Part shown: positions 18,033-56,929 of the stretch, in pieces
How positions within the stretch are numbered: position 1 is the stretch's first letter
How the letters are laid out: every line of letters begins with the position of its first letter
Assembly: GCA_001029775.1 (NCBI GenBank)
Contig: CP011215.1
Coordinates: forward strand, 554,303 to 618,302
Origin: Candidatus Campbellbacteria bacterium GW2011_OD1_34_28
GTDB taxonomy: Bacteria; Patescibacteriota; Minisyncoccia; Phycocordibacterales; UBA12079
Length of the DNA stretch: 64,000 bases
Reading direction: 5' to 3'
The notes under the pieces: model-generated
What the model saw: the letters and a program-made list of their open reading frames with translations, nothing else
The model's database searches: none
Told to the model about the DNA's origin: nothing
Translations under genes and position numbers: made by a program

Positions 18033-18075
18033 CCTGCCTCTTTTCTGAAAGAAAAGCAACGACACGGCAGGCAGG
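18033..18075. repeat. 43-nt CCTGCC hairpin repeat (other copies 26120-26162, 29280-29318, 56741-56784)
   Basis: cctgcctcttttctgaaagaaaagcaacgacacggcaggcagg. Outer stem cctgcc/ggcagg encloses inner hairpin cttttct/agaaaag. Four near-identical copies in both orientations. Confidence 0.7.
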
Positions 18076-18152
18076 TTTACAAATTTCATTCTTGTCCGTC
18101 TTTGCGAGTGAAACGAAGCAATCCAGGACATTAATATTTTTTAAACAAAAAA

Positions 18153-18177
18153 CTCCCAGCACACAATGTGCCGGGAG
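18153..18177 (-). terminator. conserved cassette terminator T2 (ctcccagcac-N5-gtgctgggag); copies at 25565-25589 and 29397-29421
   Basis: Perfect or near-perfect 10-bp stem followed by a T-run on the minus strand. Three copies, each downstream of a minus-strand cargo gene. Confidence 0.65.
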
Positions 18178-18185
18178 TTTACAAA

Positions 18186-18920
18186 TTATCTTCGCAGGAT
18201 AGCTGTTTTTGCGAGAGAGAAAGATATTCCAGAAAAAACAGGAGCTTTTTGATAAAGAGATACCCCAAAACCCAGCACCGAACTTGTTTCTGCTTTTGTG
18301 AATAAATTCATTCCAATAAGACACACAACATTTCTACGTGCCTCTGAAAAAATGTTAGCCCCTACACAAACACACTGGATATCTTCATATGATTTTAAAA
18401 ACAAGTTAAAACCGCATACAATATAAATATCTTCAAACGCAAACGAAAAAGCATTTAAACCTGTAAAACAAAAAATATCGTTGTTTGAACTTGAAAATAA
18501 ATTAACACCGACAAGGCAAAAAATGTTAGATGCTTTTGAAAACAGATTTAAACCAAAGAAACAAGCAATATTTCCGCCTGCTTCTGAAAAAACATTAAAC
18601 CCCCACAATGTAAAAATATTTTTATGGGCACTCGAAAAAAAATTTAACCCGAAAACGGATTCACAGGAACCATCTTCGGCAACCTGGAAAAAAGATATCA
18701 AAGAATATATGTTTCCCTGTTCGCTCGCTCCCCCAAAAAGAGAAAAGGTTGCTCCAAAAATTTTCCACGGGTATGCCATCAAGAAAAATAACAGTGAAAT
18801 CCACAAACTGACAGTGTGCCCACTCAACCAATAAACAGAATTTGTTAAAATAGCAGAAATGGATCCTGCAAACAACAAATTAATTTCATCTACTTTTAAT
18901 GTAATTTTGGAAGTCCTCAT
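18186..18920 (-). CDS. membrane protein with about nine tandem 16-aa repeats (GxNxFSxAxxNIxCxx; beta-solenoid-like)
   Basis: Likely start MRTSK at 18920. N-terminal TM helices, then repeats encoded by a 48-nt DNA periodicity. Strand chosen by TM segments and the downstream T2 terminator. Reading on the plus strand cannot be fully excluded. Confidence 0.4.
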   Translation of the reverse strand: MRTSKITLKVDEINLLFAGSISAILTNSVYWLSGHTVSLWISLLFFLMAYPWKIFGATFSLFGGASEQGNIYSLISFFQVAEDGSCESVFGLNFFSSAHKNIFTLWGFNVFSEAGGNIACFFGLNLFSKASNIFCLVGVNLFSSSNNDIFCFTGLNAFSFAFEDIYIVCGFNLFLKSYEDIQCVCVGANIFSEARRNVVCLIGMNLFTKAETSSVLGFGVSLYQKAPVFSGISFSLAKTAILRR

Positions 18921-19077
18921 TTGTTTTCCCCTTATTCTGATGTTATTAGTTTCAAAACTACAATTTCTTTGCAAACTATAAACCACAAAAGATATCGAGT
19001 CAATGGCTTGGAAATAAAAGTAAAAAATAAAAAACAGCCTGCTCTAATGCAGGCTGTTTGGGGCGGTTGCTCGCCCG

Positions 19078-19338
19078 TCACCTTCTTCCGCCTCCTCGGT
19101 AACTCTCTCTACCACCGACAAATAATTTTTCGGTGAACTTACAAACAGGGTACATCACCAAACAAAAAATCCAGAGAGGGGTTAAACTTACCATGAAAAT
19201 TAAAAAAAGTACCAATTTTCCGAGAGTGAACATGTCGGCACATATCGCCAACATCACCACAGGTATTGAGTCTCCAGCCCTTACTGAGGCTGATGTGTCT
19301 TCAAAGCACACGTCCTTTATGTATTCTTTTATCTTCAT
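19078..19338 (-). CDS. small membrane protein (GC-rich cargo of family-1 cassette A)
   Basis: 86 aa. RBS ggaga plus ATG at 19338. Two TM helices. Hairpin terminator cagcctgc..gcaggctg at 19030-19062. Confidence 0.5.
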   Translation of the reverse strand: MKIKEYIKDVCFEDTSASVRAGDSIPVVMLAICADMFTLGKLVLFLIFMVSLTPLWIFCLVMYPVCKFTEKLFVGGRESYRGGGRR

Positions 19339-19473
19339 GTTGTCTCCTCATTTGTTTTGCGGACATTTAAGTTTTTCAAAAATTTTTAGGCGTTTTTTTC
19401 AAAACACCCTTATTTCCTATTTGTAATATTAACATAATTAAGCAACATTGTCAATTTATATAATAAAAACAAC
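19339..19473 (-). promoter_or_regulatory. family-1 conserved promoter (TTGACA-17-TAATAT) plus about 85-nt conserved leader; copies at 25949-26078 and 29962-30093
   Basis: Three diverged copies (roughly 85-90 percent identical by eye) of ttgaca..tagtat/taatat..aggaaataagggtgttttgaaa..gcctaaaaa, each ending in RBS plus the ATG of a different ORF. Confidence 0.6.
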
Positions 19474-19502
19474 AAAAAACCGCTTTAAAATAGCGGTTTT
19501 TT
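19474..19502 (-). terminator. conserved cassette terminator T1 (aaaaaaccgc-loop-gcggtttttt); copies at 26079-26107 and 30094-30122
   Basis: Bidirectional hairpin with A/T runs. It lies between the stop of an unrelated housekeeping gene (gyrA, pth, sigma-r4 gene) and the family-1 promoter. Confidence 0.65.
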
Positions 19503-19545
19503 GTATGTTGGGGTCTATTTTCTTACTCCTTAAACCTTACACCTA

Positions 19546-22032
19546 TTATAGGCAGGTAAGCGATGCAATCTTGTCACCTTCTCTCATTTTCATTATTCTT
19601 ACCCCCTGTGTCTGTCTGCCCAATGATGGGATTTCTGAAACATCTACTCTGATCACTTGTGCATTTTTTGAGATAGCAACAATTTCTTGTTGTTTTTCCG
19701 TCAGTACTTTTGATGTAATCAAATTTCCTGTTTTGTCGGTGATTTTCATTGTCTTGATTCCCGATCCTCCCCTCTTTTGAATTTTGTATTCTTTGAGAGA
19801 AGTTTTCTTTCCGTATCCATTTCCGCTCATAACAAAGAAATCTGGATTCACATAATCTTTTTTGATGATATTTCCTCCAACAACAAAATCTCCTTTTCCA
19901 AGTTTCATTCCGGTCACTCCTCCCGCCCCTCTTCCCATTTCTCTAACATCGCTTTCTTTAAAGCGAATAGATTGTCCTTTACTGCTGGTCAAAATAATAG
20001 TATCTCCTTTATCAACAAAACGAGCGGTTATCAATTCGTCTTTGTCTTGCAATTTTATAGCAATCAAACCGTTTCTTCTTACATCATGAAAGTTTTTAGC
20101 GGCTACCTTTTTTGTAACTCCAGCCTTTGTAACCATCAACAGAGAAATATTGTTCTGTTTTTCATCTTTTGGCATTGGTAAAATAGAAGTAACTCTTTCT
20201 TCTGCTTCCAATTGCAAAAAATTCATAATAGATTTTCCTCTTGTTGCTCTTTTTCCTTCTGGAATATCGTACATCTTTATTTGGTAAGCTTTTCCTTTGT
20301 CGCTAAAGAACAACAAATCACTGTGTGTGCTTGTTGTCAAAAATGTAGTAACAAAGTCTTCTTCTTTGGCTTTTAGGTCTACTACGCCCACCCCGCCTCT
20401 TTTTTGTCTCTTGTATTCGTCAGGGTTGGTTCTCTTTATATATCCTCCAGATGTATAAACCAAAACACTCTCTTCTTCGGGGATTAAATCTTCAACAGAA
20501 ATAGATTTAACACCTGTATTAACAACTTTGGTTCTTCTGTCGTCTCCATATTTTTCAGAAATTTCAACAAGTTCTTTTTTGATAACTTCCAATATTTTTT
20601 TAGGACTCTTCAAAAGTTCGCGCAATTCTTTTATCAAAGATTGTACCTCTTTCAATTCGTCTTCAATTTTCTTTCTCTCCAGTCCTGCCAATTTTTGCAA
20701 CTTCATTTCCAAAATAGCATGAGCTTGTCTATCGCTAAATTTGAATTCTTTCATCAAATTTAAATGAGCAGTTGCAGTGTCTTTGGATGCTTTAATCGTT
20801 TTGATTATCTGATCAATATGATCTAGGGCTTTCTTTAATCCTAGCAAAATATGCTCTCTGTCTTCTGCTTTTCTTAGATCAAATTGAGTTCTTCTAACAA
20901 CAACATCTTGTCTGTGTTTGATAAATTCTTCCAAGACGCTTTTCAGCGCCATTGTTTGAGGAACACCATCAACCAATACAACAAGGTTCATATGGAAGGT
21001 ATCTTCCAATTGAGTGTGTTTATAAATATAATTTAATATTTTTTGAGGATGGGTACCCGATTTTAGATCAATAACAACTCGGATATCTCTTGTTGATTCG
21101 TCTCTCAATCCCTTTATGCCCTCTATTTTTTTATCTCTGTGAAGCTCGGCTATTTTAACAATCAAATCTGCCTTGTTTACTCTGAAAGGAAGTGAAGTAA
21201 TGATAATCTGAAAATTGTCGGCTTTGTTTTCTACTATCTCTGCATTTCCACGACAAATAATACCGCCTCTTCCAGTGGCATAAGCGTGAGCAATTGCTTT
21301 TTCATCAAAAATCATTCCACCCAAAGGAAAATCTGGTCCTTTCACGAAACCAAGAAGGTCTTCGGTTGTAGCATCGGTATTGTCTATTAAGTGAACTGTT
21401 GCATCAACTACCTCTCTCAAGTTATGAGGGGGAATATTGGTTGCCATACCAACAGCAATACCAAGTGTTCCATTTAAAAGGATATTTGGAACAGCAGACG
21501 GCAAGACAGTTGGTTCTTTGGTTGTCCCATCATAGTTTGGTCTAAAATCAACGGTGTTTTTTTCAATGTCTCTCAACAACTCGTTTGAAAGTTTTGACAT
21601 CTTTGCTTCGGTGTACCTCATCGCTGCTGGAGAGTCTCCGTCTATTGAACCAAAGTTTCCTTGTCCTAATACCAAAGGATATCTCATTGTAAAGTCTTGA
21701 GTCATCTTTACCATAGAGTCGTAAACAGCCACATCACCGTGAGGGTGGTATTTTCCCAATACGTCTCCGACTACGGCAGCAGATTTTCTAAATTTTGCAG
21801 ATGATGTCAAACCCATGCCACTCATTGTGTAAAGGATTCTCCTGTGAACTGGTTTCAATCCGTCTCTTACATCAGGCAAAGCACGATCGGTAATAACAGA
21901 CATGGCATAATCCAAAAAACTACTCTCCATTTGAGAGCTGATATTTTCTGTGATGATACCTTTTTCTGTCACGATATCTTTTGGAATTTCTTTTTCGTTA
22001 TTTGAATTGTCCTTTTCTTCTTTTTTTGCCAT
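19546..22032 (-). CDS. gyrA: DNA gyrase subunit A
   Basis: 828 aa. [26 protein letters not shown] active-site region. C-terminal beta-pinwheel with a GyrA-box-like QKRGGSG. Confidence 0.85.
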
Positions 22033-22179
22033 GTTTTAAATTAGTTTTTAGTCGTTAGTTATTAGTTTTTAATTATCAAAACCAGTTTATTGTTTATAGA
22101 TTCTAAAGACTATAAACTATCACCTAATAACTACGAAATTATATCACAAAACAAAATTAATTTCCTTATCAAAAAGTCG

Positions 22180-22425
22180 TTATTTTAAGTCTATCTGTTG
22201 ATAAATTCCACCAAAATCATCCCATATTTTTAACACAAAAACCTTCATTTCTTGAATTGAATTGTTACCATATTCTTTCTTTCTTTTATTATCTTCAAAA
22301 AAATAATTTAAAATTATGGCAATCAAAATTATCCCTATCATTGTAAAGACTGTATAGGTAAAAAGAAGAGATCTTTTTTCTTCTTCTGGCTTGTTTCTTA
22401 TTTTTGTTAAGAAATCACCGGACAT
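22180..22425 (-). CDS. small membrane hypothetical protein
   Basis: 81-aa ORF with one TM helix. Confidence 0.35.
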   Translation of the reverse strand: MSGDFLTKIRNKPEEEKRSLLFTYTVFTMIGIILIAIILNYFFEDNKRKKEYGNNSIQEMKVFVLKIWDDFGGIYQQIDLK

Positions 22426-22436
22426 ATTAAAAAATA

Positions 22437-23078
22437 TTATACTTCTGAATTTAAAACAATTATTTCACCGTCTCTGCCTTCCAGATCTTTCTTCTTGATA
22501 GTCAATTTGTCTACAGGCTTAACATTTTCTTCTCCCCCCTCTTTCAAAAACTTTTTCAGAGCATCCTTTTCTCCAACATCACCATAATGCATTGGAATAA
22601 TTATTTTTGCTCCCAATTTGGTTGCTAGTTTGTGGGCATCACTTGCGTTTAATACCCCATCACCTCCGATAGGAGTAAATAATACCTCTACATCGCCTAA
22701 AACAGATTTCGCATTTTCTCCTAATTCTATTGAATCCAAAGCACCAAGAAAACCAATTTTTATTCCGTCCAATGTCAAAGAATAGACAGTATTGATTCTG
22801 CTCTTGCCTTTGTATTGAGTATTATAAAAAACTCCTCTTATAAAAATTCCTTTGATTTCATATTCTCCTGGACCAGAAATAACAAAAGGTTCTTTGTTTT
22901 TTGAAGAAACACTTTCTACCCCGTTCAAGTCAACACTGTTTGCTGTGATAATGGCAATATCAGCACCGAATCGAGGGCCTTTAAATTTTGAATCTTTGGA
23001 AATTGGATTAAAAGCGATGACTATGTCGCCAAATTGAACTTTAAAAAATTCTATATTGTGGTATGTGATTATCATAGG
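22437..23078 (-). CDS. MBL-fold metallo-hydrolase-like protein
   Basis: Start moved to MIITYHN because the track N-terminus runs through the palindromic repeat 23112-23211. Beta-lactamase-fold-like motifs (HYGDV). Confidence 0.5.
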   Translation of the reverse strand, partial: PMIITYHNIEFFKVQFGDIVIAFNPISKDSKFKGPRFGADIAIITANSVDLNGVESVSSKNKEPFVISGPGEYEIKGIFIRGVFYNTQYKGKSRINTVYSLTLDGIKIGFLGALDSIELGENAKSVLGDVEVLFTPIGGDGVLNASDAHKLATKLGAKIIIPMHYGDVGEKDALKKFLKEGGEENVKPVDKLTIKKKDLEGRDGEIIVLNSEV

Positions 23079-23111
23079 TTGGATTATATCATACTTTAGA
23101 ATTACGAAATT

Positions 23112-23211
23112 GTGGATTGCTTCACTTCGTTCGCAAATTTCCCGCCTTTGTCGTCTTTGCGAAATTTCGTCTTCCCCGTCGTCTTTGCGAGCCGAAGGCG
23201 AAGCAATCCAC
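23112..23211. repeat. palindromic dimer of the GGATTGCTTCG...CTCGCAAAGACG element
   Basis: gtggattgcttc...ttcgcaaa...cgtctttgcgaa...cgtctttgcgagccgaaggcgaagcaatccac. Half-copies at 15232-15267, 18091-18129, 52985-53013, 58388-58416. Confidence 0.6.
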
Positions 23212-23447
23212 GTCGTCCGTGCTATCAGCTGTAAGCTATCGGCTATCAGCTTCTTCAATGCTATCAGCTTTTTGAACTTTTGACTTTTGTCTTATTATAT
23301 ATATACTTAACTACAGCCAGAAACGGCTTTATTTTTTATTAATCGAATTATAAGTTAACCCTATTTAAAAAAGCGGTAAGGCGCGAAAAGATTATAGATT
23401 AAGCCTTATTTTGCTGGTAAATAGTACTTTTAATTCAAAAAATCAAA

Positions 23448-24563
23448 ATGACAAAAAAGGATGTTAATCCAGAAGTAGAGGTATCTACTAATGAAGAAGT
23501 GAAAAAAGACGGTATAATGACCGCTTTGATCGAAAAAACCCCTACTCTTCCTGCTATAGGAGAGCTAATCGAGGGAAAAGTTATAGGTATTGAAAAGAAT
23601 GGTGTTTTTATAGATTTGCCACCATTTGGTACAGGTATAATTTATGGAAAAGAACTTATAAGTGTTCGTGATGTAATCAAAAATTTGAACATCGGGGATA
23701 CTGTTGATGCAAAGATTGTTGATGTTGAAAACGAAGACGGTTATGTTGAATTGTCTTTGAAAGAAGCTAGACAAGCTCTTGTTTGGACAGAAGCTGAAAA
23801 AGCAATGAAAGAAAAACAAGTTCTTGAATTGTCTATCAAAGAAGCAAACAAAGGAGGTCTTCTTATCAACTGGCAAGGAATCTCAGGATTTCTTCCTGCT
23901 TCACAACTAAGCAGTGAAAATTATCCAAGAGTAGCAGACGGAGATAAAGACAAGATCTTGGAAGAATTGAAAAAAATGGTTGGTTCAAAAATCGCTGTTC
24001 AAATTATCGGCGTTGAACCAAAAGAAGGAAAATTAATCTTCTCAGAGAAAAATATAAATCAAGGAGAGAGAGAAGAAGTTATTCAAAAATACAATGTTGG
24101 AGATGAAATGGAAGGAGAAGTTACTGGTATTGTTGATTTCGGAATCTTTATCAAATTGGATGGAAACATTGAAGGTTTGGTACACATTTCAGAAATAAGC
24201 TGGTCACTTGTTGAAAATCCAAGAGAATTGTTCAAGATTGGAGAAAAAGTAAAGGTGAAAATTATAGAAATAGTAGATGGAAAGATTTCACTATCTATCA
24301 AAGCTTTGAAAGAAAATCCTTGGAAAAGTGCAGAAAGAAAATTCAAGAAGGGCGATGAGGTTGAAGCTGTGGTTATCAAATTCAACAAACACGGCGCTTT
24401 GGCAAGTATAGAAGAGGGTGTAGCTGGACTTGTTCACATTTCAGAATTTGAAAGTAGTGAAGAAAAATTGAAAGAGGCTTTGCAACTAGGCAAAAACTAT
24501 AAATTCAAAATCAATGTCTTTGAACCAAAAGATCAAAAAATGACATTGTCTTTAGTTAAATAA
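23448..24563 (+). CDS. rpsA: 30S ribosomal protein S1
   Basis: 371 aa with four S1 RNA-binding repeats. Hairpin terminator acagggac..gtccctgt follows. Confidence 0.8.
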   Translation: MTKKDVNPEVEVSTNEEVKKDGIMTALIEKTPTLPAIGELIEGKVIGIEKNGVFIDLPPFGTGIIYGKELISVRDVIKNLNIGDTVDAKIVDVENEDGYVELSLKEARQALVWTEAEKAMKEKQVLELSIKEANKGGLLINWQGISGFLPASQLSSENYPRVADGDKDKILEELKKMVGSKIAVQIIGVEPKEGKLIFSEKNINQGEREEVIQKYNVGDEMEGEVTGIVDFGIFIKLDGNIEGLVHISEISWSLVENPRELFKIGEKVKVKIIEIVDGKISLSIKALKENPWKSAERKFKKGDEVEAVVIKFNKHGALASIEEGVAGLVHISEFESSEEKLKEALQLGKNYKFKINVFEPKDQKMTLSLVK

Positions 24564-24701
24564 ATTTAACTAAAGAAAAAAACAAAAAACAGGGACTCAC
24601 CGTCCCTGTTTTTTGTTTTTAATTGACTTATTTTATTTAAATAAATATACTCAGGACAGATTTTAGGATGTTCTCGCTATACAAAATAGAAGGAGGAAAA
24701 A

Positions 24702-25493
24702 ATGAATAGTGAAGGTCGTTTTATTAGTATTACGGATTTTACTTGCCCTGAGCAGGTAAATTCTATGTTGGAATTAAGAAAAAAACTCAACAGCAAAATC
24801 CTTTTGGGCGTTGGAGTTATGATGAGTTATAAAACACTTCACGGATTCCCAACAAAATGGTCAAAATCTTTTCCAGAAAACAAAGATATTCCGTCTATTT
24901 TTATGGACAAAGAGGGTGTTTTTAATGTTTTACATTATGCGGATCAAAACAATGATTCATGTTGGGAAGATTTTTGGGCAGGGCTTGGTTATGCGGGTCC
25001 AAATGTTCATGCGATCCAGTTTGATATGACATGGCCACACCCTAACGATGTCCATTATGTAATTAGTAGCATGAAAGAAGAGGGGGCTCTTGTCGAAGTA
25101 ATTATACAAGTTGGACGAAAATCTTTTTTACAGGCAGGAAATACACCCAAAGGAATTATAAAAAGATTATCAGAATATTATTACAGAAACTGTTTGGGCT
25201 ATGTTCTTTTGGATAAAAGTATGGGCGAAGGGAAAATACTCAACCCTCACGAACTAATTCCTTTTATAGATGCGATTTACCAAAAGTGGCCAAATATTAA
25301 AATTGTTGTAGCGGGTGGTCTCGGTCCAGAAACAATTTCCACTGTGGAACCAATTTTGGACCTTTATCCCGTAAGTCTTTGTGCTCAATCCAGATTACGC
25401 CCCAGTTTTAATGCTTTAGACCCCATTGATTGGGATATGGCACAGGAATATTGGAAAAAAGCCGATGCTCTTTTTAAAAAATACGAAAAGTAA
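24702..25493 (+). CDS. TIM-barrel-like protein (weak PRAI/TrpF-like pattern)
   Basis: 263 aa. C-terminal IVVAGGLGPETI resembles the phosphate-binding loop of PRAI-type barrels. Weak. Confidence 0.3.
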   Translation: MNSEGRFISITDFTCPEQVNSMLELRKKLNSKILLGVGVMMSYKTLHGFPTKWSKSFPENKDIPSIFMDKEGVFNVLHYADQNNDSCWEDFWAGLGYAGPNVHAIQFDMTWPHPNDVHYVISSMKEEGALVEVIIQVGRKSFLQAGNTPKGIIKRLSEYYYRNCLGYVLLDKSMGEGKILNPHELIPFIDAIYQKWPNIKIVVAGGLGPETISTVEPILDLYPVSLCAQSRLRPSFNALDPIDWDMAQEYWKKADALFKKYEK

Positions 25494-25589
25494 TTTTTTC
25501 ACTTTAAAACCCCAGTAGCAGCAAGGCTATTGGGGTTTTGTTTAAAATTGAAAAAATAAAAAACTCCCAGCACGTGGTGTGCTGGGAGC

Positions 25590-25681
25590 AAAGTGTCAAT
25601 TTTGTCTCGGTTTTTAACTAACCGGAGGAATCTGCTTTCCTTGGGCTCTCCATTTTTTAAAAACGGGGACAAAATTTGTTG
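25590..25681 (-). promoter_or_regulatory. conserved 3' element of family-1 cassettes (copy 2 at 29422-29514)
   Basis: About 85 nt (gagtgtcaattttgtctcggttttt.actaaccggaggaatctgctttcctt.ggctctccatttttt) between the cargo stop codon and T2. Near-identical in two cassettes with unrelated ORFs. Confidence 0.55.
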
Positions 25682-25948
25682 TTACGGCAACTTCACCGTA
25701 ATCAACAGATTGCTAGGTATCGCTTCACACGGCACAGTCGACAGTGAAGCTATCTTCGCAAAACCCACCCACGTCTGATAGATAGCAAAGCACAAGCCTG
25801 TTCGTGGATCTTTCGTATACTGAATTCGTGCGACAGTATTGGTGACTTCTTTTATTATTGTATCTTCTTCCGTCGTCGCCGATGACGTTCCGAAGCCGAG
25901 AACCATAGCTACCAACGTAACGCAAATCATCATGGAAATCTTTTTCAT
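25682..25948 (-). CDS. small secreted protein (GC-rich cargo of family-1 cassette B)
   Basis: 88 aa. RBS aggagaagg plus ATG at 25948. Signal peptide MKKISMMICVTLVAMVLGFGTSSA. G+C-rich. Confidence 0.5.
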   Translation of the reverse strand: MKKISMMICVTLVAMVLGFGTSSATTEEDTIIKEVTNTVARIQYTKDPRTGLCFAIYQTWVGFAKIASLSTVPCEAIPSNLLITVKLP

Positions 25949-26185
25949 ACCTTCTCCTTCAATTGAATGACTTTTTTGTATTTCAATTTTTAGGCGTCTC
26001 TTTCAAAACACCCTTATTTCCTATTCATAATACTAACATAATTAAACAATACTGTCAATCTTTCTAACCAAAACAACCAAAAAACCGCTTAAAAATAGCG
26101 GTTTTTTGTGTTTCTAAAACCTGCCTCTTTTCTGAAAGAAAAGCAACGACACGGCAGGCAGGACTAAAAACTGACAACTAAAAAC

Positions 26186-26770: not shown

Positions 26771-26872
26771 AAATATTAGTATAAAGTAGTAAGGATTAAG
26801 TAACAAGTAGAACGGGTCGACTTCGTCAACGCTGTTAGCTATCAGCTGTCCACTGTGAGCTTCGTCCGTGAA

Positions 26873-27913: not shown

Positions 27914-27940
27914 AAGCTAGATAGCAAATTTAACTTTTTA

Positions 27941-29239: not shown

Positions 29240-29514
29240 ACAATAAAATTAGTGGACAAAAAACATACCAATATACGAACCTGCCTGCCGTGTCGTTGCT
29301 TTTCTTTCAGAAAAGAGGTAGATGATGCGAATAATACGAATGCAATACAAATACAAACTTTACAAACACTGATGTTATTTTTTTAGTAATAAAAAACTCC
29401 CAGCACGCAATGTGCTGGGAGCGGAGTGTCAATTTTGTCTCGGTTTTTGACTAACCGGAGGAATCTGCTTTCCTTAGGCTCTCCATTTTTTAAAAATGGG
29501 GAAAAAAATTTTAT

Positions 29515-29961
29515 TTAATATTCTACTCCGAGGAAATAATCATCCTCGTTCCAGCTCCCATAAGCCCACTCGAGAAAAACCCCTTTCCCTTGGCTGTTGC
29601 TTTCAAACAACGTCGGCACATGCTTGGTTTTTTCTATTGAACACATCGAACCGAGTGCTGTTACTGAGAAAGGCTTTTGTAAAATTCTTTGGTTTATCCC
29701 GAAAGATAAAATCTCGTGGATAGTCGCTGGTCGACAACCCTCCCTGCTCATCCCAGAAAGAGTTTCGGTAATCCTCATACTCTTCCCGAAACAAAAAACC
29801 ACCAATTTCCTTTCTTCCACCTTCCCGTTCTTGGGACGAGGAAATTTTTCGAAGTGCCCCCTCCCTTGGGGGTATTTCTTGATGAGGTCATAGATAAGGC
29901 CGGGCACTTCCTGCGTTTCGTCAACAGGAACAACAAGCCGGTACTTTATATTAGTATTCAT
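29515..29961 (-). CDS. hypothetical cytoplasmic protein (GC-rich cargo of family-1 cassette C)
   Basis: 148 aa. RBS aaggagaagg plus ATG at 29961. G+C-rich. Bounded by the conserved leader and the conserved 3' element plus T2. Confidence 0.5.
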   Translation of the reverse strand: MNTNIKYRLVVPVDETQEVPGLIYDLIKKYPQGRGHFEKFPRPKNGKVEERKLVVFCFGKSMRITETLSGMSREGCRPATIHEILSFGINQRILQKPFSVTALGSMCSIEKTKHVPTLFESNSQGKGVFLEWAYGSWNEDDYFLGVEY

Positions 29962-30157
29962 AACCTTCTCCTTGTCCGCTTTGCGAACTTTTGTATTTCA
30001 ATTTTTAGGCGTTTCTTTCAAAACACCCTTATTTCCTACCTATGATATTAACATAATTAAACAGCACTGTCAATCTCTGTAACTAAAACAAGCAAAAAAC
30101 CGCTTATTTTAAGCGGTTTTTTGTTGTACTTTATAACTTTACAAACTTTAAGAACTT

Positions 30158-34553: not shown

Positions 34554-34729
34554 GAGAAAAAATATGACAGATGAACAAAAAAACGGTCTTCGGATAGGCA
34601 TCCGAATCGGGCTAATCCTTGTAATCGGACTAGGTCCTAAATAGAAAAAATCCCTGAGACATCTCAGGGATTTTATTTTTCTTCTCACGCCTTACCACTT
34701 ACACCTTAATCCTTACCCCTTACTACTAA

Positions 34730-42573: not shown

Positions 42574-42720
42574 CCAAATAGCCAATGGATTTTCGGGCAA
42601 CATTGCCCAAGAACTAATTTGTTAAAATAGTAACATAAAAACAAAATAAATCAACGATTTTGTGTAGTCTTTTCAACATCCATTTTTGAAGATTTTGGGG
42701 TATTAGTTTTTGTATTTTGA
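42574..42720 (-). promoter_or_regulatory. family-2 conserved promoter plus leader (copy 2 at 45194-45345)
   Basis: About 110 nt near-identical in both copies: cccaagaactaattt.ttaaaatagtaaca.aaa.acaaa.taaatcaacgattttgtgtagtcttttcaacatccatttttgaagattttggggtat. Each ends with RBS plus the ATG of an unrelated G+C-rich ORF. Confidence 0.55.
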
Positions 42721-44388: not shown

Positions 44389-44392
44389 ATAA

Positions 44393-44875: not shown

Positions 44876-44983
44876 AAAATTTTAATTCGATAAATCTATT
44901 ATAAATCAACAGAGGGCGAGTAAACTTGCGGTCTACTCGCCCTCAATGTTTGTGTACTACATTCCCAGCAATTCCTCCGACCG

Positions 44984-45193: not shown

Positions 45194-45345
45194 TTTCTAC
45201 CTCCTTAGGCAATTATGGATTTCGCGGGCAATATCGCCCAAGAACTAATTTATTAAAATAGTAACACAAATACAAATTAAATCAACGATTTTGTGTAGTC
45301 TTTTCAACATCCATTTTTGAAGATTTTGGGGTATAATTTTAGGAT

Positions 45346-46742: not shown

Positions 46743-46743
46743 A

Positions 46744-48378: not shown

Positions 48379-48418
48379 AAAATGCCCAGTAGCAAGGCTA
48401 CTGGGAATTTTTTTTATT

Positions 48419-49828: not shown

Positions 49829-49859
49829 AAAACTTATTTTATCATAAAATAAAAATAAT

Positions 49860-50912
49860 CTAGCTCAAAAGGGCAATTATCATTCCGAGAATTGCAAAAA
49901 TGACACTGATAATCCAATATCTCATTACCACTTTATAGCTTGGCCAGCCGATAGCTTCAAAATGATGATGTATCGGTGCAACACGAAATACTTTTTTGCC
50001 TCTGATTTTTTTTGAAGATACTTGAATAATATTTCCCAAAACAGTTGCAAAAAGAGGAAAAGCAATAATAGGTAAAACTAAAACGTGTCCTGTTAAAAAT
50101 GCGACGACAGTCAATGTTGTAGTTAATCCCAATATACCAGTTTCCGACATATAAAATCTTGCAGGGGGAATATTAAACCAAAGGAAAGCCAAAATACCGC
50201 CGACAATCATTGCACAAAAAGCAGCCAAATCTATTTGCCCTTGGAAAAAAGCAATTCCAGCATAGGCGGAGAAAATTGTTGCCATCACTCCTCCCGACAA
50301 TCCATCTATTCCATCAATCACACCTGACGCAAAAAGAGAAAGCATTACCATCATGAAGAAAGGAATAAATAAAATTCCCAATTCTAACACTCCGTCCAAG
50401 GGAATGTTTATAGAAGAAACACCAAGTTTTGAATAAAACCACCAACCACCAATTGCACCAATCAAAAGAACCAAAATAATTCTAAGCTTTAAGGGCAAAC
50501 CACCAGCAATATATTTCCCTTTATTCAAGACGAGGGCAAGATCGTCTACCAAACCAAGCAAAGAAGCAGTAACCAGTGTAAATAAAGGCAACCATGTCTG
50601 GCTCCTACTCATAAAATCTAATTTTGTAGTTAATTCATTTGGAAACAAAAAAGAAGCCAGCCAAAAAAGGAAAATAGTGATCAAAGAGCTTGCCCAAATA
50701 ATTACTCCGCCCATTCTAGGAGTACCAGTGTCTTTTTCTTTGTGTAATTCATTAAAAATAGGAGTCCCACTCTTATCACCCAAACCAGCTTCTTTTCCAG
50801 CTTTTTTCTTCCACATCTTATTTTTATATAAAAAGTGCGTCAAAAAAGGCGTCAAAGCGATGCCTGTAAAAAATGCCACTGTCCAAGGAATTAATATTTT
50901 TAATGCGTCCAT
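49860..50912 (-). CDS. mraY: phospho-N-acetylmuramoyl-pentapeptide transferase
   Basis: 350 aa. GTPRMGG, DGIDGL and HHHFE motifs in a polytopic membrane protein. Confidence 0.75.
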   Translation of the reverse strand: MDALKILIPWTVAFFTGIALTPFLTHFLYKNKMWKKKAGKEAGLGDKSGTPIFNELHKEKDTGTPRMGGVIIWASSLITIFLFWLASFLFPNELTTKLDFMSRSQTWLPLFTLVTASLLGLVDDLALVLNKGKYIAGGLPLKLRIILVLLIGAIGGWWFYSKLGVSSINIPLDGVLELGILFIPFFMMVMLSLFASGVIDGIDGLSGGVMATIFSAYAGIAFFQGQIDLAAFCAMIVGGILAFLWFNIPPARFYMSETGILGLTTTLTVVAFLTGHVLVLPIIAFPLFATVLGNIIQVSSKKIRGKKVFRVAPIHHHFEAIGWPSYKVVMRYWIISVIFAILGMIIALLS

Positions 50913-51084
50913 AAATCAGTCTATAGTTTTTAGCTGTTAGTTTTTAGAAAGTTATTTAATAAATCAATTTAAAGTATAAGATATAAAGCGCTAAGTACAA
51001 AGTGTTGACAAGTAACATTTTTTAATTTAAATTAAAAATAGACAGGTAGAGAAATCAACATCCAATCAATATTGAGGAGAAAAA

Positions 51085-51339
51085 ATGCCTTTCAAAAAGA
51101 AATATTTTTTAATTTTCTTTGTTGCACTTTTTATCTTATTTATCTCAATTTTTTTGGATATCAAGACATCATTAGAATTGGGTTTAATAGAGGTAATCTG
51201 CGTTTGTATATTAATTTCTCAAATTATATTTATACCAGTATTTGAAGATATAAAATGCCCATTATGTAGATCGTGGGATACCCACAGAAGTATATTTGGT
51301 ATCATTTGGTGTCCCCGTTGTCATCATAAATTTTGGTAA
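51085..51339 (+). CDS. small membrane protein with C-terminal CxxC..CxxC zinc ribbon
   Basis: 84 aa. Hairpin terminator aaaggcgggctttcgcaagaaagcccgccctttt follows. Confidence 0.4.
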   Translation: MPFKKKYFLIFFVALFILFISIFLDIKTSLELGLIEVICVCILISQIIFIPVFEDIKCPLCRSWDTHRSIFGIIWCPRCHHKFW

Positions 51340-51417
51340 TATCAAAAGGCGGGCTTTCGCAAGAAAGCCCGCCCTTTTTATTTTCAAAATTTCTTACACC
51401 TTACCCCTTACACCTTA

Positions 51418-52380
51418 CTACTCGACTTGTCCTATCTGATTAATACTTGAATTCACCAATTTTATTACATCATCAAATCTCCCCTCTTTGCTAGATCCCA
51501 AAACAGAAACAATTATCGGATGACCAATTCCGACATCAAACACGACCACCAAATTTCCCCCCGCCAAATCTGTAAATCCTGTTTTTGATCCAATAATCCC
51601 TGGGATATTTTCAACAAATTGATTTGTGTTTTCAAACAAATGATTTTTGTTATCCGAACTTATTCTTAACACAGGATATTTTGTCGCTTCAATCAATTTA
51701 TAATTGTTTTTTATAATATGATTCATTAGAAAAGCTATGTCTTTTGCCGAGCCATAAGCTCCACTCACAAGATCACTCTCATCAAGACCAGACTCGTTCA
51801 AGAAAAAAGTTTGCGCCAAACCGATTTCTTTTGCTTTTTTATTCATCTCATCTATAAACATTTCTCTTTCTGTTTTTTCACCATCTTTCAGTCTGATATA
51901 TCCGATAACAGAAGCGAGAGCATGTGCTCCATCATTTGAAGAAGCAGTTAATGTCATATCTGAAACATTTTTAAATTTTAAATTTTCTCCAACAAGCAAC
52001 CCATTGTCCCCTTCTATATTCAGATCTTCTTGTCTTATTGTAATGACAGTGTCTTTTGAAACCAATTCAGAAGATACAAGCACAGTCATAAGTTTTGTTA
52101 AAGAAGCAAGAGGCAGTTGTGTTTCGGCGTTTTTTTGAAAAAGAATTTCTCCTGTTTTTGCATCAAAAACAAATGCCGATTTTGCTTCCAATTCACCAGA
52201 AATATCTTTGAAATAATTCTTCTCTATCTTTGTTACCACACCCGCGTTTTCTTCCAATTTTTTATTTTCATTGTTCTTCCAAAAAATCCAAAACAAAACA
52301 ATCACCATTATAAAAATAATGACTGAAACAGCGATCAAAATTATTCTTTTTTTGTCATCAAAAAAATTCATATTATTCAT
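51418..52380 (-). CDS. D-alanyl-D-alanine carboxypeptidase (S11, PBP5-like)
   Basis: SxxK (ASLTKLMT) serine active site after an N-terminal TM. Start trimmed to avoid overlap with scpB. Confidence 0.65.
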   Translation of the reverse strand: MNNMNFFDDKKRIILIAVSVIIFIMVIVLFWIFWKNNENKKLEENAGVVTKIEKNYFKDISGELEAKSAFVFDAKTGEILFQKNAETQLPLASLTKLMTVLVSSELVSKDTVITIRQEDLNIEGDNGLLVGENLKFKNVSDMTLTASSNDGAHALASVIGYIRLKDGEKTEREMFIDEMNKKAKEIGLAQTFFLNESGLDESDLVSGAYGSAKDIAFLMNHIIKNNYKLIEATKYPVLRISSDNKNHLFENTNQFVENIPGIIGSKTGFTDLAGGNLVVVFDVGIGHPIIVSVLGSSKEGRFDDVIKLVNSSINQIGQVE

Positions 52381-52945
52381 CGTCCAATAAGGCTTGAGAA
52401 TCTTCCTCAAACATTTCACTCTCTATTTCAACTGCTTTTTTTAACTCGCTTATCACTTTATCATATTCGGGCAATTCTTCTAAACTAGAAACCCCCAAGA
52501 AAGAAAGCAATTCAAATGTCGGAATATATAAATACGAACGCTGGTCATTTTCATCTGACTTTCTTTCCACTAATCCTCTAATCATCAAATTTCTCAAAAT
52601 AGATCCCGAATTTACCCCTCTAATATAATCTATCTCCGATTTTCTGACAGGACCCTTATATAAAACAATTGAAAGAGTTTCTATTCCTGCTTTCCCTATA
52701 TCTCTGGACAATTCTTCTTTTTTCAAATTTTCAATTACTTCGTGCATTTCAGGAGAAGTTCCCAACATCACCTTGTTATCATTTTTAATTAAACAAATTC
52801 CCCTGTCTTTGAAACTTTCTTTTAACAAATTCAATGCATCAGATATTTCGCCCTCTTTCACATTTAAAATTTCAGCAAGTTGTTTTGTTGAAACTGGCTC
52901 GCCTTTGAAAAATAATATTGATTCTATTTTTGAACTTAAATTCAT
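52373..52945 (-). CDS. scpB: segregation and condensation protein B
   Basis: 190 aa. Winged-helix ScpB pattern. Adjacent to scpA. Confidence 0.75.
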   Translation of the reverse strand: MNLSSKIESILFFKGEPVSTKQLAEILNVKEGEISDALNLLKESFKDRGICLIKNDNKVMLGTSPEMHEVIENLKKEELSRDIGKAGIETLSIVLYKGPVRKSEIDYIRGVNSGSILRNLMIRGLVERKSDENDQRSYLYIPTFELLSFLGVSSLEELPEYDKVISELKKAVEIESEMFEEDSQALLDDE

Positions 52946-53056
52946 AAAAATTTTTATATTAATCCAAATTAGGATGTGTTTTTATGGATTGCTTCGCTTC
53001 GCTCGCAAAGACGATGAGAGTGACGAAACAATTCACAATTTAATAATTTAAAGATA

Positions 53057-53782
53057 TTAATAAACCGGAGTACTGATATCGGTATTCTCAATATCAATCT
53101 CTCCAAAAGTAGCAGTTTGTTTTACCGCCACAATACCTTGTTTTACCAATTCCAACACCGCCAAAAAACTGACAACAACATTTATTTTTTCTGTTTTGTT
53201 TCCAGAAAATTCACTAAAACTCATTTTGACTTGTCTCTTAATTCTTTCTGTTAGATTGTCTATCATTTCTTCTAGACTGATTACTTTTCTTACGGCTCCT
53301 TTTGAAATAATTTCTTTTTTAGGCAATTTTGTAATAACCGAAACAATAGAAGAAAATAAATTATCTACACTAGTGTGTTTGTCGGGAGAAAAAATAATTT
53401 CAATATTTTTTGTTTTATTACCTGCAAAAATAATATTTTTTCCAAATCTCTGGTTAACATGAACAGAAAGCTCACGAAATCTTTTATAAAGTTTTAATCT
53501 GTTTTCAAGATCCTCAATACTTTGTTCTTCTTCTGTAGACAAATTTAAATTTGGCAAAAGCGATTTTGATTTTATAAGCATTAAAGCCGAGGCAATTAAA
53601 ACAAACTCGGAGGATTCTCTTATAGACATTGATCCCCTATTCCTTATATATTCAATATAATCATCAGCAATAACAGACAAGGAAATATCGTTTATAAAAA
53701 GTCTTCTCTTTTCTATTAAATCTAGAAGCAACCCCAAAGGGCCTTCAAAAGATTGTGTTTTTATTGTATATTCTGAATCCAT
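53057..53782 (-). CDS. scpA: segregation and condensation protein A
   Basis: 241 aa. FEGPLGLLLDLIEKRRLFINDISL is the ScpA N-terminus. Confidence 0.75.
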   Translation of the reverse strand: MDSEYTIKTQSFEGPLGLLLDLIEKRRLFINDISLSVIADDYIEYIRNRGSMSIRESSEFVLIASALMLIKSKSLLPNLNLSTEEEQSIEDLENRLKLYKRFRELSVHVNQRFGKNIIFAGNKTKNIEIIFSPDKHTSVDNLFSSIVSVITKLPKKEIISKGAVRKVISLEEMIDNLTERIKRQVKMSFSEFSGNKTEKINVVVSFLAVLELVKQGIVAVKQTATFGEIDIENTDISTPVY

Positions 53783-53886
53783 GTTTCTATCATTATAACA
53801 ATAAATTCAAGATAAAAAAGAGAATTTTGATTTAAAAAAGACCAACGCTGAAAGCGCTGGTCTTTTGACAAGTTCACCGGGCGGAG

Positions 53887-54141
53887 TTAGTTTTCCCAGT
53901 GAACCGGTCCGTGGAAGAGGCCGGCTTTGAGGGAATAGTCTTTCCCTCTGAAGTTGAACTGAACAGCTCTCAGATCGTCATTTCGTCCAGTAACCTGGAC
54001 GACGACTTCTCCGGTGCTACCATTCAGTGCCCTGACCAAATCGAGTCCTTCGGGACTTTGATGCCCCAAGAGGATCCTTTTGACATGGTCAACCTCAAAA
54101 GCAGCCTTTCCTTTTGCCGGTACAAAACCTTCTTTGCTCAT
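53887..54141 (-). CDS. small hypothetical protein (GC-rich cargo)
   Basis: 84 aa. RBS gggag plus ATG at 54141. Promoter TTGACA-17-TATATT at about 54215-54245 (minus). Bidirectional terminator at 53838-53868. Confidence 0.4.
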   Translation of the reverse strand: MSKEGFVPAKGKAAFEVDHVKRILLGHQSPEGLDLVRALNGSTGEVVVQVTGRNDDLRAVQFNFRGKDYSLKAGLFHGPVHWEN

Positions 54142-54344
54142 ACCAAACTCCCTATAAAAAAGAAAAAAGAAACCGTGACAGCACCCATACCGTCACAGAC
54201 CTGATTTCAAATATAGCTACTTTAAACCCTTATGTCAAATGTTTTTCCACAACAAGTTGTTCGTTGATTTTAATTGACATACAATTTTGGCAAGCATAGA
54301 ATAAAATCAGAAGTGTTCTCTCAAACCTTTGGAAAGGAGTGGTT

Positions 54345-54767
54345 ATGAACGAGATTGATAAATTGGCATTGATGGCGTCGTTGTCCGAAGAGCACTGCGA
54401 ACTTAACCATGGACCCGAAACATCTCATTTATTTACCCCTGCAATTGATTATCTTATTCAGCCATTTGGATATACCGTGAGCGATGTAGAAGAAGTTTCT
54501 GTGAGGGATATGATTGTCCCCATCTGCGCCGAGTGTGCAAAAGCATTGCAAGGTAACGAATGGACACTCTTTTATTGTTTTGAGTGCAACAGTAGTCATT
54601 GGATTTATCGCAAACATGCCCGTCTGCGTTACCGATACAATGTCCTCTGGCTTCGGGGCTGTCCTGAATGTACCAAAGAATTCGGTGGTCTCTACTTTTC
54701 CGATTTCAAGGGATTGCCCGAAGAAACCTATTTCTTGAGCCAACAGGCTGTAAAAAAAATCGTTTGA
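54345..54767 (+). CDS. Cys-rich hypothetical protein (GC-rich cargo, divergent from 53887..54141)
   Basis: RBS aaaggag plus ATG at 54345. Promoter ttgacat..tagaat at about 54264-54293. Multiple CxxC pairs. Hairpin terminator 54776-54810. Confidence 0.45.
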   Translation: MNEIDKLALMASLSEEHCELNHGPETSHLFTPAIDYLIQPFGYTVSDVEEVSVRDMIVPICAECAKALQGNEWTLFYCFECNSSHWIYRKHARLRYRYNVLWLRGCPECTKEFGGLYFSDFKGLPEETYFLSQQAVKKIV

Positions 54768-55401
54768 TTTTCACAAAAACAAAAACTCATGTCATCTTCA
54801 CGACATGAGCTTTTTTAATTTATTATTTTATTTTTATTATCTCAAAATTGCGTTTAGAAGAGTAATAACAAAACTGAACCCTCCTGAAATGAGTGCTAAA
54901 ACAGTTGGTCTATCTCTATACCACTTATAATATCTTGGGTCAGGGTTGCTGTCCATAAACAAATAAAATAATAACTAGACGGTTAGTATTACAACTGAAA
55001 CAACATAACTAATTGTTCCTGTGAATAATGCCAATGCTAGTAATCCTTCGTATTTTGTATTCATACCTTAAATAATACAACACTAAAACAAAAATTGGAA
55101 AGCCAATTTATCAACAGCTATTTTTAATAGTGTGTTGACATTATAGATTATATATAATATAAAAAGAGTATGGAAACAAATTGGAAAAATATTAATAGAG
55201 GCCCAAAAACAGACGCGCAAGATTCTTGTGTAATGTTTTTGAATTACCAAACAAAGGCTGGGCAGAATATTTTTTCAACTTCTAATAAAATCCCTATCAA
55301 TTAAGGATTATAAACTATTTAGAAATACAGAGGTTCAAAAAATATCCTGCTCAAAAACGAGCAGGATATTTTGTTCTTTAGTGTTCTTCGAAAACAAAAC
55401 A

Positions 55402-55989
55402 ATGGAGAAAAAAATGGAAAAAGAAAAAAACAAGGCGGTATTTTTGGAAGGAAAAAAAGTAAATCTTCGACCTGTAAAAGAAGAGGATGCCGAAAAATTT
55501 ATTCAGTGGGTAAATGATCAGGAAGTGACACAATACCTCATTATGTTTATGCCTATTACTCTTATGCAAGAAAAAGAGTGGGTAAAAAATGTCAGCTGTA
55601 AAGATAATGAGTTGTTTCTTGTCATTGAGACAAAAGATGGAGAGGCTATCGGCACAACCGGATTTCACCAAATAAATTGGAAAGACAGAAATGCTTCACA
55701 CGGCATTATGATCGGAAATAAAAAATATTGGGGAGGCGGATTTGGAACTGAGGCGGGAATGCTTTTGTTCAACTATGCTTTTCAGGAATTGGGTTTAAAC
55801 AAAATAAATTCCAACCTCATCGGCTATAACAAAAGAAGCCTTCGCTACCACCTTGGTTGTGGTTTTAAAATTGTCGGAAGAATGCGCAAGCAGGTCTTTC
55901 GCAAGGGATCTTTTCACGATCAGATCTTTGTAGATCTTTTCCCGAAAGATTTTAAAAAGGTGTGGAAAAAGTATATTTCTTCAAAATAA
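55402..55989 (+). CDS. GNAT-family N-acetyltransferase (RimJ/RimL-like)
   Basis: Start MEKKMEK. Acetyl-CoA-binding core pattern (IGNKKYWGGGFGTEA). Confidence 0.6.
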   Translation: MEKKMEKEKNKAVFLEGKKVNLRPVKEEDAEKFIQWVNDQEVTQYLIMFMPITLMQEKEWVKNVSCKDNELFLVIETKDGEAIGTTGFHQINWKDRNASHGIMIGNKKYWGGGFGTEAGMLLFNYAFQELGLNKINSNLIGYNKRSLRYHLGCGFKIVGRMRKQVFRKGSFHDQIFVDLFPKDFKKVWKKYISSK

Positions 55990-56043
55990 AAACCTTCACA
56001 CAGAGCAACGACACTCCCGTATTGCAATATATGGGAGTGTTTT

Positions 56044-56592
56044 TTATTTCATAAAAACCAACTCTACCCTACTTACTTCATAAGGTTCTTTTGAGTGAGA
56101 AATACTTAGATTAGATTTTTTGAAAGTTTTGTGTAAATGTTTTGCTATTCTTACCGCCAACTGATTTTCTGTTGTAGTCACATTGAAAGACTCTCTGTCT
56201 TTCCTTATTCTGATGATGCGACTTTGAGGATCTTTTTTTAATTCCCTTTCTGCAAAAGCTTTTATCGTATTTAAAACATCGTCTTTATAATTTACAGAAA
56301 CATTTTTTATAGTAATTTCACCTTCATACAAACCTTCTTTTATCATCTTACAAGCAGGACACTGTCTAAAGTGATGCTCTTTTTTATCAAATTCTTTTTT
56401 TGAGAAAAAATCTTTCCCCAATGCTTTGCTGTCTGAATGATGCCACTCTTTTTTAAACAAAACATTTTTACAGTCAGGACAAACAGCAACACCTTCTGCT
56501 GATTTCCAATGTTGATCATTTTTTTGTTCTCCTTTTCTCAAAAGAACTTTTTTAGATCTTGTATTTTTTGATGCCTTATAAAATTTTGACAT
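56044..56592 (-). CDS. zinc-ribbon-containing hypothetical protein
   Basis: 182 aa. CPDC and CPAC pairs in a basic protein. Confidence 0.4.
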   Translation of the reverse strand: MSKFYKASKNTRSKKVLLRKGEQKNDQHWKSAEGVAVCPDCKNVLFKKEWHHSDSKALGKDFFSKKEFDKKEHHFRQCPACKMIKEGLYEGEITIKNVSVNYKDDVLNTIKAFAERELKKDPQSRIIRIRKDRESFNVTTTENQLAVRIAKHLHKTFKKSNLSISHSKEPYEVSRVELVFMK

Positions 56593-56929
56593 AAGTCTGA
56601 TTTAAATTATTCACTAATAAAATCGACCTATATAGAAAATTGTTTGTCAGATGTAGAGTAAGTTTCGCTTTTTCAAGCGGAAGACTATATATAGATATTA
56701 TATCACAGACAAGGCTGATAGCCGATAGCTTATAGCCAATACCTGCCTGCCGTGTCGTTGCTTTTCTTTTAGAAAAGAAGCAGGGATGATAGTAACGATG
56801 AGCGAGTTTTTAATTTGACACACTGTTTCGTAATTCAAAAAAGAGAGAAATTTGTTTCACAAATTTCTCTCTTTTTTTTCTTACTGACTATCAGCTATAA
56901 GCTATCGGCTATTGGCTTTTTATTTGATT

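Follow-up and report, generated by a model that had tools for sequence, protein, structure and literature searches.

The window studied here, a 64,000-nt stretch of contig CP011215.1 (positions 554,303 to 618,302) from Candidatus Campbellbacteria bacterium GW2011_OD1_34_28, a member of the candidate phyla radiation (CPR), has a G+C content of ~33% and carries housekeeping open reading frames (ORFs), among them gyrA, pth, the aminoacyl-tRNA synthetases GluRS, TyrRS and one of class II, MurG, FtsW, ScpA/B, DnaX, L9 and S1. The genomes of CPR bacteria are streamlined and very small, and spacers rich in repeats are not known as one of their traits; in this lineage, densely nested mini-palindromes and heptamer arrays form a mosaic between the core genes. 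Within this mosaic lie four copies of a 43-nt imperfect palindrome that we name E (CCTGCCTCTTTTCTGAAAGAAAAGCAACGACACGGCAGGCAGG), with the ends CCTGCCT...GGCAGGCAGG. The comparisons show that E has fixed ends and has been inserted as a unit at many sites in intergenic, often repetitive DNA, precisely, without duplication and in both orientations. It is probably a non-autonomous miniature mobile palindrome, of the class formed by repetitive extragenic palindromic (REP) elements and cyanobacterial small dispersed repeats (SDRs), and the long form of a 20-nt palindrome, P.

Four copies of E in the window

A search of the window with the 43-mer (up to 3 mismatches) returned exactly four matches, with 0, 0, 2 and 2 mismatches, and 100 dinucleotide-preserving shuffles of the window returned none; nhmmer found no additional, diverged copy in the window. 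The four copies reported in a preliminary description of this DNA are thereby confirmed as real and non-random, as is their division into two on each strand. The borders given there stand for the plus-strand copies 1 and 2, whereas one end of each minus-strand copy had to be moved, by 4 nt for copy 3 (29318) and by 1 nt for copy 4 (56741). In an alignment that included 200 nt on each side, similarity among the copies ended at the 43-nt borders, and the flanks were unrelated. Copies 1, 3 and 4 occupy the interval from a terminator to the following promoter; copy 2 is in a 3' untranslated region (UTR), ahead of the terminator.

E is predicted to fold into two stacked helices of 7 bp each, an outer stem (CCTGCCT/AGGCAGG) and an inner hairpin (CTTTTCT/AGAAAAG) with the loop GAA; 12 nt on the 3' side, CAACGACACGGC, remain as a bulge. 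The same arrangement, an outer stem around an inner hairpin, had been proposed before. The computed folding energies are -14.1 kcal/mol for RNA (z=-2.5) and -9.5 kcal/mol for DNA (z=-3.3).

Table 1. Positions in the window of E copies, associated repeats and gene-framing modules (F, D2 and D3 are defined in the text; ^ marks the insertion point).
Feature	Position	Strand	Remarks
E copy 1	18033-18075	+	0 mismatches, consensus; between the arms of the host hairpin
E copy 2	26120-26162	+	0 mismatches, consensus; between the pth stop codon and the following terminator
E copy 3	29280-29322	-	2 mismatches; 5' arm mutated (TCTACC); inside the segment ~29240-30090 replaced relative to L011
E copy 4	56742-56784	-	2 mismatches; CCTGCT arm, loop G>A; adjoins heptamer array
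Host hairpin	18024-18087	.	arms GAAATTTG (18024-18031) and CAAATTTC (18080-18087); E copy 1 at apex
F copy	15233-15265	-	insertion point empty
F copy	18094-18129	+	GTCTTTGCGAG...CGAAGC^AATCCA; E/P point empty between 18119 and 18120
F copy	23181-23210	+	insertion point empty; followed by CTATCAG array
F copy	52985-53012	-	insertion point empty
F copy	58391-58420		
Heptamer array GTAAGGG/GTAAGTA	17958-18019	+	degenerate; 13 nt upstream of E copy 1
Heptamer array ACTAAAA	26163-26186	+	directly adjoins E copy 2
Heptamer-type array GCTGATAGCCAATA	56714-56745	+	adjoins E copy 4; inverted partner of 56888-56917
Heptamer array CTATCAG	56888-56917	+	inverted partner of 56714-56745
Other heptamer arrays	3697-3729, 12553-12611, 13089-13186, 22040-22076, 23221-23293, 34690-34723, 50924-50947, 51393-51418, 58262-58293, 63352-63378		
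D2 modules	19370-19505, 25974-26109, 29989-30124		
D3 modules	25555-25684, 29388-29517		

E is nearly invariant across related genomes

A metagenome scan for E yielded 42 loci, five of which (L012, L013, L014, L023 and L045) proved to be chance 20-mer matches in GC-rich DNA and were set aside. The census DNA comprises the window and 44 related loci, 442 kb with the five chance loci counted in. The element recurs there in both orientations, in 59 copies and ~45 distinct contexts. Nearly half of the copies (28/59) are identical to the consensus; the others carry 1-3 changes, save two more diverged copies at one locus (L010/L011). The orthologue of copy 2 is kept in L010/L011, a 98%-identical strain, with 1 mismatch. 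The sequence of E is nearly invariant across species, spanning lineages whose orthologous genes are 75-90% identical; L034 and the window, for example, share 78-80% in coding DNA.

Copies outside every ORF of at least 90 aa number 47 of the 59, and the remaining 12 lie within ORFs of up to 175 aa that are made of repeat DNA. Orientation is unbiased over the 45 contexts: 25 copies point the same way as the surrounding genes and 20 the opposite way, the counts for GC skew are 24 versus 21, and the copies stand at variable distances from promoters, terminators and start codons. E occurs as singlets: this holds for all four window copies and nearly all others, with a few same-orientation pairs no more than ~600 nt apart (L019, L029). 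No neighbouring gene recurs, as the 214 ORFs within 2.5 kb of a copy fell into 146 clusters with no family repeated beyond orthologues. DNA uptake sequences occur at about one copy per kb, also inside genes; E, with four copies in 64 kb and none in real genes, was rejected as one.

The window itself is well represented in other assemblies. Positions 17546-24032 (6.5 kb) are 100% identical to contig DNLU01000003.1 of GCA_003489565.1 (L087), the identical DNA is present in an ENA groundwater metagenome assembly (SRR1658465 / PRJNA268031), and GyrA of the window is on record in ~25 assemblies, some with contigs >1 Mb. Among 185,579 species-representative genomes the E core is present in one, the metagenome-assembled genome 'Candidatus Paceibacterota bacterium STC_102', which has only short repeats in common with the window.

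E is inserted exactly into a mosaic of short repeats

E often lies in DNA that is itself repetitive: a second repeat family, hairpin apexes and heptamer arrays. The repeat family, F, has the form GTCTT[TC]GCGAG-(variable, often hairpin)-CGAAGCAATCCA, is usually preceded by a GACGAA...TTCGTC hairpin, and is very abundant, far commoner than E, with dozens of copies in L001-L049. In 11 contexts E is placed exactly between GAAGC and AATCCA of F. A three-way alignment of L048, which carries E, L039, which carries P, and L030, which is empty, reveals a clean insertion of 43 nt or 20 nt with zero duplicated bases: GAAGC-E-AATCCA in L048 faces GAAGCAATCCA in L030, and the alignment is otherwise gapless. 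Target-site duplication was found neither in this comparison of filled and empty F sites nor in that of a tRNA-Met gene with and without P (described below). Empty sites also exist in the window, where the F copy at 23181-23210 corresponds to the E-bearing site L006 3441 minus its E (91% over 58 nt, gapless). More generally, the joined flanks of about half of all E copies match an E-less paralogue across the junction. F itself often occurs in inverted pairs, with other hairpins nested between GCGAG and CGAAGC, and may be a REPIN-like backbone of the mosaic.

Copy 1 illustrates the nesting. A ~155-nt composite of heptamer array, E-bearing hairpin and F is common to the window and L027 (90% identity) in unrelated gene context, and is also present in L022 and L019; the L027 version of the host hairpin has a predicted energy of -24.4 kcal/mol (z=-7.7). 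Several other copies stand in-phase within degenerate heptamer arrays, as in CTATCAG CTATCAG C-E-TATTGG CTATCAG; an array of this type holds E in-phase in L002, L006 and L007. In the 5' flank, position -2 is G in 28 of the 45 contexts and position -1 is A or C in 42, summarised as R-G-(A/C)^T, and the 3' flank is T-rich. Because the contexts are not fully independent, we regard the 5' bias as a preference and not a motif.

The window holds ~20 intergenic degenerate heptamer arrays with varied units (GTAAGGG, CTATCAG, TTAGTTT, ACTAAAA, CTTACAC and others), some of which form inverted pairs around a spacer, such as 56714-56745 with 56888-56917 (Table 1). Heptamer arrays have been documented in cyanobacteria, Beggiatoaceae and Bacteroidetes, and their origin is not known (PMC4679880). 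Those of the window resemble the STRR/TAACTGA-type repeats of cyanobacteria and Beggiatoaceae (PMC4679880) and are unexpected in a CPR genome. A 7-bp target duplication by E or P as the builder of such arrays was rejected because the insertions into F and into the tRNA-Met gene duplicate nothing.

E is gained, lost and exchanged for a 20-nt palindrome

P (CCTGCCTGCCGGCAGGCAGG) is a perfect palindrome of 20 nt that has the same ends as E; it has ~22 copies in the CPR loci and none in the window. A third form, E' (CCTGCCTCTTTTCTGAGAGAAAAGAGGCAGG; L016 9007-9037), is a 31-nt perfect palindrome that corresponds to E minus the bulge. All three share their inverted ends and differ only in their interiors.

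Comparison of close relatives reveals that E is gained, lost or swapped among them and that it is interchangeable with P. In the orthologous, 95%-identical loci L031 and L015, the former contains P and E within a CTTTATG-type array and the latter the array alone; in L001 and L046 (90% identical), a 171-nt spacer with heptamers and E corresponds to 43 unrelated bases. E and P occupy one site in otherwise identical flanks in L048 versus L039 and in L035 versus L043. The latter pair is 100% identical over 575 nt to the right of the element, with E in one and P in the other; L043 carries a further E, 20 nt upstream. P is one base off a simple deletion of E, and a switch between the two therefore implies re-insertion or conversion.

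P is present in phage DNA

Exact P was found in 35 stretches of ~30 unrelated viral contigs in IMG/VR (L050-L084), which come from many samples and range in G+C from 38 to 68%. Two composition-matched control palindromes had 0 and 0 matches, and E was not found in viral contigs. Some of the contigs are clearly phage (lambda-type portal, capsid protein, Prim-Pol), and no neighbouring gene recurs among the P-bearing viral loci. In collections of cultured phages and plasmids, P had only partial matches attributable to chance, and a literature search found no paper with the sequence of E or P.

As with E, viral P stands in-phase in heptamer arrays (GGTGAGA, GGTGAAA, TCTCGTC, GTATTTC), often with an inverted partner array. 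P also lies in tRNA genes. In L074 (2284-2303), P is the long variable arm of a 92-nt phage tRNA-Met; subtracting it leaves a canonical 72-nt tRNA with the variable loop AGGTC, an exact insertion with nothing duplicated. L051 has the same insertion beside an 11-nt deletion, and in L081 P lies in the D-loop of a tRNA fragment. L083 (3928-4142) contains at least 10 tandem 21-nt P-like units (CCATGCCTACCGGCAGGCAGG) reaching the contig end. A sequencing or adaptor artefact was ruled out because the elements are in-phase in arrays, lie inside a tRNA and recur in independent NCBI, ENA and JGI assemblies.

Gene modules beside three of the copies

Two modules frame small genes of the window. D2 is a 136-nt upstream module (terminator, TTGACA-type promoter, leader) common to genes of 86, 88 and 148 aa, and D3 a 130-nt downstream terminator module common to two of them. 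The genes framed by D2 and D3 are probably the 'family-1 cassettes' beside which the preliminary description had placed three of the four copies. Locally, that neighbourhood is real: copy 1 is 75 nt from a shared terminator module, copy 2 is 11 nt from D2 and copy 3 is 66 nt from D3. It does not extend further, since the modules are limited to the window's lineage (the window, L010/L011 and, weakly, L034) and none is near the other ~40 distinct E contexts.

That E marks the borders of inserted gene cassettes, or serves as a recombination site for their exchange, is therefore very unlikely as a general account. In addition to the proximity of copies 1-3, two further observations speak for it. 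The homology of L035 and L043 begins at the E/P element, and copy 3 lies inside a replaced segment: at ~29240-30090, opposite L011 6644-7545, the 148-aa gene and its 3' spacer with E have been exchanged in a strain that is otherwise 97-98% identical, and the L011 allele, of seemingly the same protein, is highly divergent. This replacement is a localised recombination import, but its left breakpoint is ~45 nt away from E, and no integrase or recombinase is nearby among the 50 window ORFs. Integron attC sites have an R''/L''-L'/R' architecture with a GTTRRRY core and lie beside gene cassettes and an IntI integrase; attC identity was rejected, as E has no such core, the window ORFs include no integrase and the cassette link is not general. 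The suggested association with GC-rich islands likewise did not materialise at 1-kb resolution, the GC peaks at 4-5, 14-15 and 63-64 kb being far from all copies.

Further repeats were observed in the window. An SPFH/Band-7 ORF (13519-14682) in the G+C-richest part of the window (47% at 14-15 kb) contains six tandem 9-nt units (CTACACCAC) at 13589-13643. A second duplicated module pair, upstream at 59776-59864 / 62375-62463 (89 nt, 83%) and downstream at 60619-60694 / 62850-62925 (76 nt, 96%, hairpin), frames small ORFs at 59856-60616 and 62455-62850. A 116-nt direct repeat (42594-42709 / 45225-45340; 93% identity) spans two sites 2.6 kb apart.

Host function, structured RNA or transposon remnant

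E could instead be a selected cis-acting DNA or RNA structure that the host requires and whose dispersal is old: a site bound by a dimeric or by a nucleoid protein, a cruciform, or a stabiliser of mRNA ends, as some REPs are. Its near-invariance across genomes that differ by ~20% in coding DNA would be expected of such a structure, palindromic ends suit a dimeric binder, and two orthologous intergenic regions (window/L034 and L002/L008) have a copy in both diverged genomes. Stem substitutions also mostly keep a G-T/G-U pair on the E(+) strand, a tendency that is not significant (6 types versus 2). We nevertheless consider this explanation unlikely, given that copies are present or absent between 90-95%-identical genomes, occur in either orientation at no fixed distance from expression signals, are associated with no gene class and swap with the much shorter P at one site, and that P also lies inside a phage tRNA gene. 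It is extremely improbable that E is a small structured RNA (sRNA, riboswitch-like leader or attenuator). The stable predicted hairpin and the location of copy 2 in a 3' UTR ahead of a terminator fit this idea, but E has no T-tail or promoter of its own, is randomly oriented relative to flanking genes and, one degenerate copy excepted, exhibits no compensatory changes; copy 2 apart, the window copies are placed after a terminator and before the next promoter. A scan of the whole window against Rfam at gathering score gave no match to E (only a tRNA-Gln was found), and a lenient scan of the copy 1 region gave weak matches far below family thresholds. An intrinsic terminator was rejected as well: a T-tail is missing, the terminator scan called no E copy and true terminators sit beside E.

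Alternatively, E and P may be internally deleted remnants (a miniature inverted-repeat transposable element, MITE, or a 'solo-end') or excision footprints of a larger transposon with the 7-10-bp inverted repeats CCTGCCTGCC/GGCAGGCAGG. Three forms with the same inverted ends and different interiors would agree with this origin, and these ends are conserved across phyla, which is also possible for the ends of a family of insertion sequences (IS). We find it quite improbable, since no target-site duplication is present where this can be tested, unlike in almost all transposons with terminal inverted repeats, and P is one base off a simple deletion of E. Moreover, the DNA between paired elements 1.6-2.9 kb apart (two pairs checked) encodes L11/NusG and LeuRS and not a transposase; a composite transposon between paired elements was rejected for these two pairs on the same grounds.

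Several results also weigh against reading E as a mobile palindrome. E has yielded no direct sign that it still moves, for instance an excision product or within-population variation. A Pfam scan of the 50 window ORFs returned housekeeping or unknown proteins and no transposase, integrase or other mobile-element gene. A phmmer search of six-frame ORFs from the 442 kb with IS608 TnpA and YafM queries found no transposase, a weak negative. The strand and orientation bias of the IS608 type is not seen for E. Enrichment next to heptamer arrays is modest: in 10 of 45 E contexts (22%) a TRF array of period 7, 14 or 21 lies within 15 nt, compared with 11% of random intergenic positions (p=0.03). For hairpin apexes (29% versus 20%) the enrichment does not reach significance, and a strong preference for either target is thus unsupported. 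Finally, in the orthologous regions shared by window/L034 and L002/L008, flanks and orientation of the copies differ; these regions could be hot spots, or there could be some selection for a copy there.

A possible route of dispersal

If E is a mobile palindrome, an enzyme acting in trans would make or move its copies by recognising the folded ends of the hairpin on single-stranded DNA; this enzyme may be encoded by a phage or at another place in the genome. The constancy of the sequence would then reflect the needs of this enzyme and not a host function, and the window copies would be passengers in untranscribed or 3'-untranslated spacers of housekeeping operons. As the candidate type of enzyme, we tentatively favour a single-strand mechanism of the HUH/Y1 kind (IS200/IS605-, RAYT- or IS91/Helitron-like), or a comparable structure-specific recombinase, because E and P combine a hairpin with absent target duplication, a short preferred 5' flank and insertions in loops (hairpin apex, tRNA variable loop, D-loop). 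Clean filled and empty sites, two size forms and an exact core in phages should make the mobilising enzyme findable by co-occurrence analysis.

More speculatively, E and P may represent a cross-phylum class of ultra-small (20-43 nt) mobile palindromes that insert exactly and with no duplication through a trans-acting mechanism. If this were true, one process would populate CPR bacteria and phages of high-GC hosts and would possibly also be the source of cyanobacterial mosaics of SDRs and heptamers; a horizontally travelling enzyme would recognise the 20-nt core as its unit, and E with its 23-nt payload would demonstrate that such a unit is able to carry cargo. The question of how elements this small (20-43 nt) move dates from the description of the cyanobacterial SDRs. 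Practical interest would also attach to a minimal unit of 20 nt that goes in precisely, even in a tRNA loop, and is capable of carrying a payload.

Comparison with known systems

IS200/IS605 ends and their miniature PATEs, as well as HUH elements of the IS91/Helitron type, insert 3' of a short preferred sequence with no target duplication, rely on a DNA hairpin in place of inverted terminal repeats and act on single-stranded DNA, traits that E shares or, for the last, would share. They differ in that IS200/IS605 and IS91/Helitron elements have two different ends and a strand bias, whereas E is one near-symmetric hairpin and has no such bias; no HUH gene was found around E in the sampled DNA. 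MITEs (Correia/NEMIS, RUP, Nezha) are similarly non-autonomous, intergenic and dispersed, with terminal inverted repeats, but they are usually 100-400 nt long, produce target-site duplications and have an identifiable parent IS. E is 43 nt long and duplicates nothing, and the sampled DNA contains no full-length element with the ends CCTGCCT/AGGCAGG.

Yeast mitochondrial GC clusters are G+C-rich palindromic mini-elements in A+T-rich spacers that are polymorphic between strains and occasionally lie inside structural RNA genes. E and P share the G+C-rich palindromic form, the location in A+T-rich spacers, the polymorphism and the occasional insertion into a structural RNA gene. The clusters belong to an unrelated genetic system with unrelated sequences, and their AG-flank and target-duplication features are not seen for E.

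The SDRs of Nostoc and its relatives, which Elhai et al. reportedly described in 2008, are said to be hairpin-forming and ~20-27 nt long, to be present or absent between related genomes, and to lie nested in each other or in other repeats, amid intergenic heptamer arrays. We know of no enzyme that moves SDRs, nor of one that moves E. By the reported definition of SDRs, E is like them in being shorter than ~50 nt, hairpin-forming, present or absent at orthologous sites and nested. Differences lie in the hosts, cyanobacteria versus CPR bacteria and phages for E and P, and in length, as E has 43 nt with a 23-nt payload inside the 20-nt form.

REP/BIME elements and REPINs with their RAYT transposases are known from enterobacteria and Pseudomonas (Bertels & Rainey 2011; PMC3116915). 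The REP/BIME-like behaviour ascribed to E in the preliminary description was borne out in part. Like REPs, E is a short, imperfect palindrome (20-40 nt in REPs) that is extragenic, occurs in both orientations and lies in mosaics with other short motifs; it is also homogeneous within a genome, non-autonomous and without target duplication. In contrast, REPs form inverted doublets and BIME clusters and E single units; REPs have a conserved 5' tetranucleotide (e.g. GTAG) and the flank of E only the preference R-G-(A/C)^. RAYT genes are typically flanked by REPs, yet none was found next to any of the ~45 distinct E copies, and no RAYT-like gene was detected in the 442 kb. REP families are species-specific, whereas the 20-nt core of E is identical in unrelated phage contigs.

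Judged by behaviour, E appears closest to REP/BIME elements and to the small dispersed repeats of Nostoc. It belongs to a known kind, the very small non-autonomous palindromic repeat, and we file it as a variant of that kind because it fails the tests of REPIN organisation, a fixed 5' tetranucleotide, MITE duplication, attC, terminator and Rfam. E stands apart in having a CPR host, in coming in two sizes with common ends and in sharing its core, unchanged, with unrelated phages.

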